Positions 41,107 to 46,013 are shown, numbered from the stretch's first letter. The stretch: DNA of 64,000 bases from an uncultured Acidimicrobiaceae bacterium (GCA_963822265.1 CAWGHA010000044.1:1871-65870), one strand, 5' to 3'. Notes: a model not told the origin generated them from the letters alone. Numbers and translations are program-made.

Positions 41107-41126
41107 ATGTGACTACTTAGTCACAT
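41107..41126. promoter_or_regulatory. palindromic operator candidate ATGTGACTA-CT-TAGTCACAT
   Basis: Perfect 9-bp arms with a 2-bp spacer, 13 nt upstream of the ArsR-SRPBCC start codon, in an AT-richer patch. Confidence 0.5.
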
Positions 41127-41153
41127 GTCAAGAGCGACCCCTGGGGGAGGCAT

Positions 41154-42521
41154 CTACGCAACCGGCTCGAAGATCTCCCACTCGTCCTCGACGTTCTTAA
41201 AGGTCTCCCGGCCCCGGCTCTCGAAGACGAGGCCCGACCCTTCGCAGTCGTCGCGGGTGGCCGCCGAGACCAGTACTTGGCCCCCGACGGCCCTGTTGCA
41301 AAGCCGCTGGGCCAAGTGCACGTGGAACCCGGAGAAGTCACGCGCGTCCATGCGGTTGGCCTCACCGACGTGCACCCCCGCGCAGAGCTCCACACCGAGC
41401 GTCGGCGCCGCTTCCACCGCGGCCAGGGCGCATCGGACGGCGTCCGGCGTGTCGTCGAACGCTGCGAGGAACCCGTCTCCGAGGTGCTTGCACTCTTCAC
41501 CGCGGTGAGCGTGGATGAGGCGGCGCATCAGATCATTGTGGTCAGAGATCAACGCGGCCCAGGGTTCATCACCGACGCTACGGGCTTTCGAGGTGGACGA
41601 GACGATGTCGGTGAAGAGCATTGCCGGGCGCACTTTGTCGGAGAACGGCTTTTGGACTCCCGTCACGAATCGCTCCACCTCGTCGATGACGGGATCGGCG
41701 TAGTTGCGCAGGAAGACCTGATCGCCCCCGGGCAGTAGGACGAGCCGAGCGTTCGGGATGGAGTCGGCCAGGAAGCGGCCGTGACTCGGCGGGATGTTGA
41801 AGTTGTCCTCGAGGTGGAGCACAAGAGTCGGCGCACTGATGTGAGGCAGAACGGAACGAATGTCGTACGTGACATTGATCCTGAAAAGGCCAACCAGCTG
41901 GTCCCGGCTGGTCGCGTCCAACTCCGCCTGCTCGGCCGGGGAGTGGTCCCGGCGGGGCGCGAACATGTTGAAGATCTTTCCCTTGGCCCAATCGGTGCGA
42001 TATCGCTCCTCGGCGCGGTCGAGGATCTGCTCGGTGAAACCGATTGGGAAGTCGGGCGCCCACTGCAGGCGGGCCCACGTGTTGCAGAGCACGAGTTGGC
42101 GTACCGGGTGCCGCGAGGCATAGATGGCAGCTACGGCGCCGCCGTTGTGCGTCCCGAACAGAACGGGGTCGGTGACGCCGGCCGCGGTCATCACGGCTTC
42201 AAGGTCGTCGGCCAGGTCGTAGACGGTCGGGAGCGTCGCGAGCTCCATGCGGTCGGAATGGCCCATCCCCAGCTGGTCGTTGGTCACCAGTCGCGAGAAA
42301 TTGGCCATCCGCCGCAACGGCCTCGCCGTCACCGGATCCTGCCAGGCGAGGCTCATGGCCATGGAACCGGCGACGTAGACCAGATCGGGCGGTCCGGTCC
42401 CCGCACGCTGGAAGGCCAAATGCTTTCCGTTACGAAGGACGAACTCCGGCGGAGGTGGAGCGAGGGGCACGCTACCCCGCTCCGGCCTTTCGACGCCGCC
42501 GCATGAGCCCAAGTGTGGCAT
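41154..42521 (-). CDS. alpha/beta-hydrolase-fold + class III adenylate/guanylate cyclase fusion (Rv1900c/LipJ-like layout)
   Basis: 455-aa intact ORF. The N-terminal half has a hydrolase fold with elbow G-T-H-N-G (no Ser). The C-terminal half has MLFTDIVSST...KHLGDGFLAAF...GVHVGE...GFHVHLAQRL. Confidence 0.85.
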   Translation of the reverse strand: MPHLGSCGGVERPERGSVPLAPPPPEFVLRNGKHLAFQRAGTGPPDLVYVAGSMAMSLAWQDPVTARPLRRMANFSRLVTNDQLGMGHSDRMELATLPTVYDLADDLEAVMTAAGVTDPVLFGTHNGGAVAAIYASRHPVRQLVLCNTWARLQWAPDFPIGFTEQILDRAEERYRTDWAKGKIFNMFAPRRDHSPAEQAELDATSRDQLVGLFRINVTYDIRSVLPHISAPTLVLHLEDNFNIPPSHGRFLADSIPNARLVLLPGGDQVFLRNYADPVIDEVERFVTGVQKPFSDKVRPAMLFTDIVSSTSKARSVGDEPWAALISDHNDLMRRLIHAHRGEECKHLGDGFLAAFDDTPDAVRCALAAVEAAPTLGVELCAGVHVGEANRMDARDFSGFHVHLAQRLCNRAVGGQVLVSAATRDDCEGSGLVFESRGRETFKNVEDEWEIFEPVA

Positions 42522-42574
42522 GTCAATGCTGGCGGGGAAACTGGCGTGTCCAGCGAGTCACATTTCCCTCGCAT

Positions 42575-42597
42575 TTCACATACCTATTGCGTTAACG
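42575..42597. promoter_or_regulatory. conserved intergenic motif TTCACATACCTATTGCGTTAACG (pair 1)
   Basis: 18 of 22 positions are identical to 44738-44759 in the paralogous spacer. It lies about 30 nt upstream of the small-gene ATG in both. Confidence 0.4.
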
Positions 42598-42605
42598 TTT
42601 AGGAC

Positions 42606-43243
42606 ATGGCAGTGGGCATGATCCTGCAAAAGGGGATCGACAACGCACTTTACGATCCCCTGTTACCGAATACGCGGCTGTCAAAGCGGCGGTCGATGCG
42701 GCTATTACAGCCGACTCGACCGTCGGCGCGGCTGTGGAGAACGCCGGGCTCTACGCGGGCCTGACCTCTCAGGAGGAAAAGGAGGCCCGTGCTGTCTTTG
42801 CGGCGATGCCTCCCACGCTGAACAAGGCGATCCTGGCCGCTCTCGGTAACGCCTTCGATCGGGGTCTTGTCATCCGCGTCAACTGGGTCGAGATCACGCA
42901 GGGCCTCATGCACGCGCATTTCGAGGAATCCACCGACAAAACCACGCTCCTCGTCCAGCTCTGGACCCGGGACGGGGCAACCTACCTCACATCCTCGAGG
43001 CCGGTCCGTGTTACGAACTGGGTCGCCGCGATGCATACACGGACGAAGCGCACGGCCAAGAAGCGCTCCGCGGCGAAGCGAGCGCCGGCCAAGAGAAGTG
43101 TGAAGAAACGGGCCACGGCCAAGCGGCCGCCGGCGAAGCGCACGGCCAAGAAGCGCACCGCCGCCAAGCGGGCGCCGGCCAAGAGAAGTGTGAAGAGACG
43201 GGCCACGGCCAAGCGGCCGCCGGCGAAGCGCGCGGCCAGGTAA
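42606..43243 (+). CDS. small protein of unknown family with histone-H1/HupB-like Lys/Ala/Arg-rich C-terminal tail; one frame break near the 5' end
   Basis: MAVGMILQKGIDNALYDPLLPNT (ATG 42606), then AAVKAAVDAAITADSTVGAAVENAGLY... in the frame of ORF 42734-43243. The tail is (TAKKRxAAKRAPAKRSVKxRATAKRPPAKR)x2. Confidence 0.5.
43051..43230 (+). repeat. 90-bp tandem duplication (x2) encoding the basic tail
   Basis: 43051-43140 versus 43141-43230 differ at about 5 positions, read directly. Confidence 0.9.
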
Positions 43244-43335
43244 CGCGCCGGCCGGCATCGTCGAACACCGGCCTTCGGACGGCGTCCGTCCCACAGCTCA
43301 TGGTGGAGTCGTTTGTGGTGAGCGAACCTCCGCCC

Positions 43336-44683: not shown

Positions 44684-44737
44684 CCGGGAGCCGGCGGCGA
44701 AAAGGGGCGCGAAGGATCACATTCAGTTTTCCTGCTT

Positions 44738-44759
44738 GTCACATGCCCATTGCGCTAGG
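44738..44759. promoter_or_regulatory. conserved intergenic motif GTCACATGCCCATTGCGCTAGG (pair 2)
   Basis: See 42575-42597. Confidence 0.4.
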
Positions 44760-44767
44760 CTTCGCAC

Positions 44768-45142
44768 ATGCCCATGATGCGGGTGGTGGGATATCTCAAC
44801 GGCGTGTTGGGCAGTCCCGGCACGCCGGCGTACGACCAGGCGAAAGAAGCGTCGAGAGTGCTGACAGCGTCGCCGAGGCCTTCGTGAATGCGCAGGACAA
44901 CCTCGCGATCCCGGCCGTAGTTCAAGACGAGGTCGGCGAAGCCCACGCGGTCTTCTCGGCCCTCCCGCCCGCCGTGGACGAATCGATCCGCGCAGCGCTG
45001 AAGGCGCTTCTCACGGGAAGCGCAGATCAGCTTGGGCTGGATCGAGCTATTGGACGGGCCCATGCAGGCGCACGTGCACGAGGGCGAAGACGGTCGGGTG
45101 ATCATCCAGCTCTCGAGCCCCAGCGGCGACACCTTCACGTAG
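44768..45142 (+). CDS. paralogue of the small protein at 42606 (no basic tail), two frame breaks as assembled
   Basis: MPMMRVVGYLNGVLGSPGTPAYDQAKE / ...VESADSVAEAFVNAQDNLAIPAVVQDEVGEAHAVFSALPPAVDESIRAALKALL... / ...LGWIELLDGPMQAHVHEGEDGRVIIQLSSPSGDTFT*. Colinear with ...VFAAMPPTLNKAILAAL...VNWVEITQGLMHAHFEES...LLVQLWTRDGATYLT. Confidence 0.45.
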
Positions 45143-45168
45143 TTCCTCACGCTGAGCGGGCGGCGGCG

Positions 45169-45312
45169 CTTCTCCTCCTCCTTCCCTCCCCCCCCCCCCC
45201 CTCCCCCTCCCTAAGCCAGACCGACGAGGCAGCGACGACCACCGTCGAGGGGCGGGGCCCCCCCCCCTCCCTCCCCTCCTCCCCCTCCCCTCCCTCCCCC
45301 CCTCCCCCTCCC
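45169..45312. repeat. two pure C/T (polypyrimidine) tracts of 44 and 55 nt separated by a 45-nt spacer
   Basis: 45169-45212 and 45258-45312 contain only C and T on the plus strand, including C runs of up to 13. The second tract is flanked by direct repeats CCGTCGAGG(G)GCGGGG (45242-45257 / 45315-45329). Confidence 0.9.
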
Positions 45313-45336
45313 ACGCCGTCGAGGGCGGGGCTGAGA

Positions 45337-46013
45337 TCAGCCCTGAGAACTCTCGGCAGGCACACGCCCCGCGGGCGGCGACGCCAGGTGTCCACGCAGC
45401 CGAGCGAGCAGAACAACACCGTCGACCCACGGGCGTCGTGCGCGATCTCCTCTGCCGTCTCGGGCGTCAGTGGCAAGCCGCAGATGGGATCGCGCTACCG
45501 CGTCACCGTCTACCCGGGCCATCCGGATGCTCGAAGCGGGAACCGGCCTCTCGACACCGCGCAACGTGACGTGCATCTCCTCGTAGGTCGTGCCCCAGCT
45601 CGGCAGCCGGTCCATGACCGAGGGGTCGGCCAGCGCCTCGCCGGCCGCGGCCAGATCGCAAAGACGGGCAGCCACGTTCACGCAGTGCCCGACATAGTCG
45701 TCGCCTTCCATCAGGATCACCTCTCCCGAGGTGATACCGGAACGGATGGAGACGGTCTTCACCGGTCCTGAGACCTCGGAGACGACGTGGTGGATCTCGA
45801 GGATGGCCTCGAGCAGGGGCCGCGTGTCGACGCACACCAGCATCACCCCGTCACCGAGCCACTTGGCGATGCGCACCCCCCGGCGGAGCAGATGTCACGC
45901 AGCAGCGCCCGGAACACGGTCAGGACGTCGACGGCGCGCTCGTCCCCCTCGAGCTCCGTCAGCGCCGTGAAACCCGAGACGTCGACAAAGGCGAACGTTC
46001 GGTGGACGCGCAC
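45337..46013 (-). CDS. stand-alone class III nucleotide cyclase with C-terminal YHS-like Cys motif, 2-3 frame breaks as assembled
   Basis: GTG 46013 gives VRVHRTFAFVDVSGFTALTE.... A break in the C6 run at 45875-45880 precedes ...RIAKWLGDGVMLV...GHCVNVAARLC.... Then DPICGLPLTPETAEEIAHDARGSTVLFCSLGCVDTW in another frame. The stop assumed at 45337 lies inside a hairpin GGGCTGA-GA-TCAGCCC. Confidence 0.65.

Follow-up and report, generated by a model that had tools for sequence, protein, structure and literature searches.

A 64,000-nucleotide (nt) stretch of DNA from an uncultured Acidimicrobiaceae bacterium (GCA_963822265.1, CAWGHA010000044.1:1871-65870), hereafter called the window, contains two copies of a divergent gene pair in which a minus-strand gene encodes an alpha/beta-hydrolase-like domain fused to a class III nucleotide cyclase (hydcyc) and a plus-strand gene encodes a small protein (sm). 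The copies are paralogous. The first is composed of hydcyc1 at 41154-42521 (-), an uninterrupted open reading frame (ORF) of 455 residues, and sm1 at 42606-43243 (+), which encodes a core of ~130 residues followed by a basic tail. The second is composed of hydcyc2, the hydcyc1 paralogue, at 43336-44667 (-) and sm2 at 44768-45142 (+), the latter encoding 125 residues once two frame breaks are corrected. The pairs are flanked by the gene of a regulator with an ArsR/SmtB-type helix-turn-helix (HTH) and an AHSA1 (SRPBCC) domain at 40342-41094 (-) and by cyc3, encoding a short hydrolase-less class III cyclase, at 45337-46013 (-). This arrangement had been proposed in a first-pass annotation of the window, and the ORFs, their divergence, paralogy and coordinates, as well as the places of both flanking genes, agree with that proposal.

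Conservation of the pairing was investigated by a neighbourhood scan in which the hydcyc alignment was compared with one genome per species, yielding 46 loci, 45 from Acidimicrobiaceae/Acidimicrobiales metagenome-assembled genomes (MAGs) and one from an Actinomycetes MAG. An sm homologue was located directly upstream of hydcyc on the opposite strand in 43 of the 46 loci, which provides the small divergent neighbour that the annotation had proposed looking for beside homologous cyclases. One of the three exceptions (L051) retains the sm promoter motif and start, and likely carries a frame-shifted sm. The paired sm proteins fall in nine sequence clusters and thereby cover most clusters of the family, two more clusters sampled from the sm side also adjoin hydcyc, and the most distant sm members are likewise found beside such a cyclase. 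The association was also specific for subtype. Every locus with a cyclase of type cyc1 has sm1, every locus with type cyc2 has sm2, and no locus mixes types; loci with a single cyclase type carry the matching sm type. Thus cyc2 and sm2 are found alone in L005 and L008-11, cyc1 and sm1 are accompanied by sm3 in L004 and L012, both pairs are present in the window, L001-3 and one Joint Genome Institute (JGI) contig, and both pairs plus sm3 are present in L006. Copy number varies between close relatives, with one to three sm and one or two cyclase genes, while the pairing is constant. Each pair is a conserved two-gene module. The duplication is old because dS, the synonymous divergence, is ~1 between cyc1 and cyc2, contrary to the recent duplication that had been assumed.

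The sm1 and sm2 proteins were 34% identical across 117 residues (BLASTP E 3e-20), and the alignment contained both the VFAAMPP/VFSALPP and the W(V/I)E... blocks from which their paralogy had been deduced. The length of ~120 residues given in the first-pass annotation holds for intact sm2 (125 residues) and not for sm1, since an intact relative (P0001), 97% identical to sm1 of the window, has 210 residues. Word-based searches retrieved five sm homologues and profile searching raised the number to 20. When 1.84 billion representatives were searched exhaustively with a profile, 118 members were retrieved at E <= 1e-3, each representing a cluster at 50% identity. Almost all are single-domain proteins of 110-140 residues and the family is acidic, with a mean net charge of -6.4. 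Three subtypes were distinguished near the window, namely sm1 (core and basic tail), sm2 and sm3. The ratio of nonsynonymous to synonymous divergence (dN/dS) was 0.29-0.64 for sm, indicating that the genes are coding, under purifying selection and fast evolving; it was 0.20-0.35 for hydcyc and 0.05-0.10 for the ArsR-AHSA1 gene.

No Pfam, NCBIfam, PADLOC or PHROGs family matched the sm core above its cut-off. When 96 members were compared with Pfam, any one family was weakly matched in at most four and there was no signal for HTH, winged HTH (wHTH) or ribbon-helix-helix (RHH) domains. AlphaFold2 modelled sm1 (17 sequences) with a predicted local distance difference test score (pLDDT) of 88.6 and a predicted template modelling score (pTM) of 0.80, and sm2 (P0007; 96 sequences) with a pLDDT of 94.2 and a pTM of 0.86. 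Both models have the same topology, in which five helices precede a sheet of three strands. Foldseek searches with both models returned no match in the PDB (best E 0.2-0.4, TM score <=0.24) and none in BFVD, so that the predicted fold is apparently new relative to these two collections. The results are in agreement with the earlier view that the small proteins are unassignable, family libraries and fold searches all being empty. The sm protein is a cytoplasmic, acidic alpha+beta protein of ~120 residues.

A tandem repeat with a unit of 90 nt at 43044-43238 (+), present in 2.2 copies with 94% matches, encodes the basic tail of sm1, a histone-H1-like sequence rich in K, R, A and P, and suggests a recent expansion of the tail. 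Sub-threshold matches were obtained with Pfam HC2 (E 1.9e-5; 25.3 bits versus a cut-off of 40) and with an NCBIfam H1-like model (E 1.3e-4; 22.3 bits versus a cut-off of 80), and the likeness to histone H1 and HC2 is compositional only. The K/R/A/P repeat recalls the PAKKA/AKKR tails of HupB/Hlp-type proteins as well as HC2, from which sm1 differs in that the tail is fused to an unrelated acidic core and scores below both curated cut-offs. The tail is missing from most members of the family. The core is unlikely to bind DNA because of its charge, the absence of HTH or recurrent Pfam families and the absence of a Foldseek match. Thus the earlier suggestion that the small partner is probably DNA-binding in one copy is upheld to the extent that the sm1 tail suggests it, and is opposed by the acidic core.

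The deduced sequence of hydcyc1 revealed Pfam domains Abhydrolase_1 at residues 78-267 and Guanylate_cyc (PF00211) at residues 300-442, the latter scoring 30.7 bits against a gathering score of 21.9. The protein aligned with positions 17-447 of the 449 in the NCBIfam LipJ model (NF058673) with E 3.5e-77, although the score of 260 bits was far under the equivalog cut-off of 800 bits. These results establish that hydcyc1 is a homologue with the architecture of Rv1900c/LipJ of M. tuberculosis (1YBT, 1YBU), an N-terminal alpha/beta-hydrolase fold followed by a C-terminal class III cyclase, and is not a LipJ equivalog or orthologue. The domains, their order and the alignment to the LipJ model agree with the earlier description of both minus-strand genes as paralogous fusions of this layout. 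The hydcyc2 gene was 66% identical to hydcyc1 across 1168 nt (E 2e-69). In the window its reading spans 43336-44683 over three frames as the result of two indels, with a probable GTG start at 44667 (VGPLLDAPE...); in relatives it is intact and called at 415-416 residues from a downstream ATG.

The best PDB match to the hydcyc cyclase domain was Rv1900c (1YBT; E 1e-25), and the active-site motifs FTDI, GDGF and VH[LVF]A[QR]R align with those of Rv1900c. Both metal-binding Asp residues and the conserved Arg are kept, and His takes the place of the transition-state Asn, a feature described for the Rv1900c cyclase (PMC4886424). Judged from these residues, the cyclase looks active. The hydrolase-like domain presented a different picture, in that the GxSxG serine nucleophile was absent from all eight homologues aligned, which contain G(T/M)(H/N)NGG instead. 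The nucleophile elbow of hydcyc1 is GTHNGG, with His aligned to the Ser of GVSMGG in Est1, and the position of the catalytic His is occupied by Q in cyc1 and H in cyc2. Since H or N replaces the nucleophile Ser, the domain is unlikely to be a serine hydrolase and is probably a sensor or docking domain. The replacement of the elbow Ser by His or Asn distinguishes hydcyc from LipJ, which is listed as a characterised esterase (PMC10865251).

The spacers between the divergent genes contain two conserved DNA elements, designated block A and block B. The 64 kb contain exactly two occurrences of TCACATNCCNATTGCGNTA, at 42576-42594 and 44739-44757, where 0.01 would be expected by chance, and the two copies are identical at 16 of 19 positions. 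These positions agree with those of a spacer motif reported earlier to begin ~30 nt upstream of the small-gene ATG in both pairs. The motif is part of the larger block B, which has the consensus tTTcCc.GCa(t/c)gTCACATgcCcATTGC(a/g)nTAnnnT and ends 6-8 nt ahead of the ATG. Copy 1, TTTCCCT-N6-TCACATACCTATTGCGT-TAACGT, lies at 42563-42598 (+) and is read as the sm1 promoter; copy 2, TTTTCCTGC-TTG-TCACATGCCCATTGCGC-TAGGCT, lies at 44727-44761 (+) and is read as the sm2 promoter. Block B was found ahead of every sm gene examined, including sm3, which has no divergent cyclase. When a relaxed pattern was applied to 61 loci, matches were located only upstream of sm, with one per sm gene where matched. 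Because of this correspondence, which extends to sm3, block B belongs to the promoter of sm itself and not to the pairing. The motif is therefore conserved far beyond the window and is not confined to this duplication, as had been considered, and it is not the mark of the pairing for which it had been taken.

The putative -10 box TAnnnT was found 6-8 nt before the ATG in all ten sm upstream regions compared and in most of a larger alignment, the distance being 7 nt at sm1 (TAACGT) and 6 nt at sm2 (TAGGCT). No Shine-Dalgarno sequence was present in the upstream regions compared and no recognisable -35 hexamer was found upstream of the spacer element of block B. From this geometry the sm transcript is probably leaderless, as in known leaderless actinobacterial promoters, which likewise have TAnnnT 6-8 nt before the start and lack a Shine-Dalgarno sequence. 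A precedent with the same geometry is found in the window, where the ArsR-AHSA1 gene is preceded by a sigma-70-type promoter, TTGACA-18-TATAGT, at 41102-41131 (-) that matches 11 of 12 consensus positions; its mRNA is probably leaderless, and so translated without a leader, because the -10 box ends 7 nt ahead of the GTG start at 41094, as read from the coordinates. The sm promoters differ from other leaderless promoters in that the -35 hexamer is not recognisable and in the conservation of the 17 nt ahead of the -10 box. The motif reported earlier coincides exactly with these 17 nt, which reach from the expected -35 position to the -10 box and are nearly unchanged, base for base, between paralogues with ~35% protein identity. 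This conservation despite the divergence of the proteins suggests that the 17-nt element is an operator, a function that we infer, or a special promoter.

Block A, with the consensus A(A/G)TGTG(G/A)CA(C/T)C (AGTGTGRCAY), is a separate element on the cyclase side of the spacer and was found once per locus in 38 of the 61 loci. Copy 1, AGTGTGGCAT, is at 42512-42521 (+) and reads ATG CCA CAC T on the cyclase strand; copy 2, AGTGTGGCAC, is at 44674-44683 (+). In general the cyclase strand reads (A/G)TG-(C/T)CA-CA(C/T)-T, which could be a start codon with codons for Pro/Ser-His after it. The ORF of hydcyc1 starts at the ATG within block A, an alternative being the GTG at 42470 that yields 438 residues. 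In ~10 loci, short-read assemblies included, block A shares the reading frame of hydcyc, and in the cyc2 type it is consistently in another frame. It may serve as a binding site, as a start codon or as an upstream ORF that is short or leaderless. The reverse complement TG(T/C)CACA resembles TGTCACA of block B, and the two blocks may be inverted copies of one site. Several candidate assignments were judged by eye and rejected: the spacing of block A was one off for a sigma-54 site (TGGCAC...), TCACA lacked the second half-site of a CRP site, and the sequence fitted neither a -35/-10 pair of the extracytoplasmic function type nor, ahead of block A, a canonical -10 box from which a leaderless cyclase mRNA would arise. 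To our knowledge Actinobacteria have no sigma-54. A search of 40000-46500 with Rfam returned no match.

The commonest synteny begins with ctaC, ctaD and ctaF, an MFS transporter gene, the ArsR-AHSA1 gene and one or more hydcyc/sm pairs, and continues with a variable insert, cyc3, two SDR genes, an HTH_67 gene and the qcr genes. The ArsR-AHSA1 gene, which adjoins hydcyc in most related loci, encodes in the window 250 residues without a frame break, with an N-terminal ArsR-type HTH (HTH_20, E 3.4e-9, 37.0 bits, cut-off 27) and a C-terminal AHSA1 domain (E 1.2e-20, 74.4 bits, cut-off 22.1), both above the Pfam cut-offs; it also matched the NCBIfam metalloregulator ArsR/SmtB subfamily model NF033788 (55.3 versus a cut-off of 55). 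The cyc3 gene, in two frames in the window, encodes 225 residues in relatives. The intact cyc3 of L002 (12582-13259) scored 29.2 bits with PF00211 against a cut-off of 21.9 and contains the canonical class III residues in FVDVSGFT, GDG and VNVAARL. Its Cys-rich C-terminal domain includes the segment DPICGLP...FCSLGC, with a sub-threshold match to the YHS domain (E 0.009), and cyc3, located by cytochrome oxidase genes, may be a metal-sensing cyclase.

Some loci encode a membrane-bound GGDEF protein in the variable insert, and others have an MpaB-like oxygenase there. The GGDEF proteins, predicted diguanylate cyclases (Pfam E 1.2e-37), are encoded between sm and cyc3 at L013:2582-3823, L017:2389-3474 and L019:2168-3565, and the island therefore collects enzymes of nucleotide second messengers. 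In the window, 45157-45319 is occupied by ~160 nt of C/CT-rich low-complexity sequence (C runs and CCCTCC repeats) where L006 has 536 nt including sm3 and L002 has a clean spacer of 58 nt; a deletion may have left this stretch as a scar, or it may be an artefact of Nanopore assembly. In relatives, the SDR genes and HTH_67 are separated by a MazE/PIN toxin-antitoxin pair (L002:16139-16788 and L005:13264-13916). A second genomic context was represented by eight loci in which the pair is accompanied by neither ArsR-AHSA1 nor cyc3. Three of the eight have, beside the pair, a gene for a stand-alone protein of ~139 residues that binds cyclic nucleotide monophosphates (cNMP) according to Pfam (E 1.7e-20) and contains no output domain (L016:2928-3443, L028:5446-5862 and L039:5442-5876). 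No canonical cNMP-binding gene was found in the main (cta-qcr) context.

The analysis shows that the pairing is conserved, that the subtypes occur together, that the sm genes are constrained as coding sequences, that their protein is novel and that the DNA elements are both conserved and exclusive. On this basis it is proposed that sm is the cognate partner of the neighbouring LipJ-like cyclase and interacts with it physically, a reading to which we assign a probability of about 40%. The sm protein would bind the cyclase as a regulatory subunit, most plausibly at the hydrolase-like domain, and would thereby set the cyclic-nucleotide output of hydcyc, with a direction of regulation that we also infer. 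It would be produced from its own, probably leaderless transcript, and the conserved 17 nt upstream of the -10 box would probably serve as operator for some regulator. In the case of sm1, the partner or the whole complex would be brought to DNA by the histone-H1-like tail. This proposal extends the earlier one of a functional two-gene unit, of which the conserved and subtype-specific pairing stands, whereas the term functional still rests on linkage.

Several observations weigh against the proposed partnership. The invariant positions of sm are mostly hydrophobic core residues with no recognisable binding motif. The sm3 genes are additional copies without a cyclase of their own. Conversely, sm was deleted from L013, in which the GGDEF gene and hydcyc are kept, and L050, from the Actinomycetes MAG, has the cyclase without a detectable sm. 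Moreover, genes of one island that is inherited vertically could stay linked through common descent or co-regulation alone. The L050 locus (JBJMHR010000006.1) lies outside Acidimicrobiales and contains two tandem hydcyc genes and an ArsR-AHSA1 gene. Two paralogous small ORFs are present there on the opposite strand, at 2409-2927 (-) and 4247-5140 (-), of ~128 and 154 residues, beginning MPHH... and MGHC... and rich in helices in the N-terminal half, with strands thereafter; hydcyc is the divergent neighbour of one and ArsR-AHSA1 that of the other. Comparison of the sm profile with these small ORFs by hhalign gave probabilities of 45%, 3.5% and 35%.

It is alternatively conceivable that sm is a transcription factor or autoregulator that binds the spacer elements and controls both its own gene and the divergent cyclase. 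The divergent arrangement with conserved DNA blocks in a spacer of ~85-130 nt would be in accord with such a role, as would the basic tail of sm1 and the position of block B between the -35 and -10 positions, typical of an operator. Nonetheless, the properties of the protein make a transcription factor unlikely, the core being acidic (mean charge -6.4) with no HTH, wHTH or RHH domain in the 96 members compared with Pfam and no Foldseek match to a DNA-binding fold, and most of the family lacking the basic tail. In addition, block B lies in the promoter of sm itself, including that of sm3 with no target cyclase.

A further possibility is that sm is a new type of cyclic-nucleotide receptor or effector that reads the product of the neighbouring cyclase. 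It is always beside class III cyclases, often between hydcyc and cyc3, its copy number varies with that of the cyclases, and the main context is without a canonical cNMP-binding gene. Yet sm is unlike CAP/cNMP-binding, GAF, PilZ and other nucleotide-binding folds, and E58 and R60 are the only conserved polar or charged residues that could line a pocket. Furthermore, the three loci of the second context with a canonical stand-alone cNMP-binding protein have less need of a second receptor. A receptor function is considered doubtful on these grounds.

The pair could also be regarded as a conflict or defence module akin to Pycsar, comprised of a signalling cyclase and a small effector or immunity factor. 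Like Pycsar and other two-gene modules of cyclase and effector, it combines a class III-type cyclase with a tightly linked and fast-evolving second gene, both genes evolve fast relative to their neighbours, the number of sm (one to three) and cyclase genes (one or two) differs between close relatives, and in one context a cNMP-binding protein accompanies hydcyc/sm. The cyclase domains match PycC, although only weakly (E 2e-6 to 8e-3) and in a manner reflecting the generic cyclase domain, and for the stand-alone cNMP-binding protein the match to PycTIR is confined to the cNMP part. By comparison with Pycsar the module is without a TIR, transmembrane or nuclease effector, and sm belongs to no defence family, with none matched in PADLOC or PHROGs. 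It is also chromosomal and retains its synteny in the respiratory cta-qcr region in most of the 46 genomes, consistent with vertical inheritance and not with a mobile island. A role in defence is accordingly regarded as very improbable.

The coding sequences of the window contain at least seven frame breaks over sm1, sm2, hydcyc2 and cyc3, among them a 1-nt deletion in sm1 near 42660-42665 and two breaks in sm2. The intact relative P0001 reads through the sm1 break, near 42660, with one extra G, and the sm2 relatives P0007 and P0006, 78% identical, are also intact. In related contigs the same locus is intact throughout, encoding ArsR-AHSA1 of 250, hydcyc of 438, sm of 204, hydcyc of 415, sm of 125 and cyc3 of 225 residues. 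Furthermore, housekeeping and neighbouring genes within 36742-52043 of the window are also split into two or three frames, including those for QcrB (50465-52043, two pieces), an SDR (46847-47565), LysE (46081-46765) and HTH_67 (49641-50452), which points to a contig-wide rate of indel errors and not to local decay. The relatives are MAGs labelled 'uncultured Acidimicrobiaceae', and most of them stem from Microflora Danica, a project based on deep Nanopore sequencing with long reads (PMC12313526). Since relatives are intact and housekeeping genes are equally split, indel errors of Nanopore sequencing are the most likely cause of the frame breaks. On their face these breaks could mean that the second pair and the small ORFs are pseudogenes in decay, or that such ORFs arise spuriously in high-GC DNA; this view is effectively refuted by the intact genes of relatives, the equally broken QcrB, SDR and LysE genes, the Nanopore origin of the related MAGs, dN/dS below 1, the 118 family representatives and the confident AlphaFold2 folds. 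The annotation had made the coding signature of the small ORFs a matter to be checked after frame correction, and it is kept, as judged from dN/dS of 0.29-0.64 and the intact relatives.

Fusions of a class III cyclase and an alpha/beta-hydrolase of the LipJ type have been known since the genome of M. tuberculosis, and hydcyc itself belongs to this known kind of cyclase; what appears to be new is the sm partner and its promoter element. No divergent gene for a small partner of LipJ is known to us. A search of the literature found nothing on cyclases of Acidimicrobiia, and no description of the sm protein or its promoter element was found. Taken at its widest, the proposal would be that sm represents a fold and a class of dedicated cyclase partners that are both new, with each LipJ-like cyclase switched by its cognate small subunit, sm1 tying cNMP synthesis to the nucleoid and the 17-nt element marking a dedicated regulatory circuit; this wider proposal is tentative and, taken as a whole, rather doubtful. 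The sm genes are nevertheless a conserved and subtype-specific partner, with a confident and apparently new predicted fold, in dozens of uncultured soil Acidimicrobiales, and add a well-defined family to the catalogue of uncharacterised proteins. The family gives a testable handle on the control of LipJ-type cyclases, and block B, as a compact candidate operator, could show how cyclic-nucleotide modules are regulated in a lineage without a cultured model organism.

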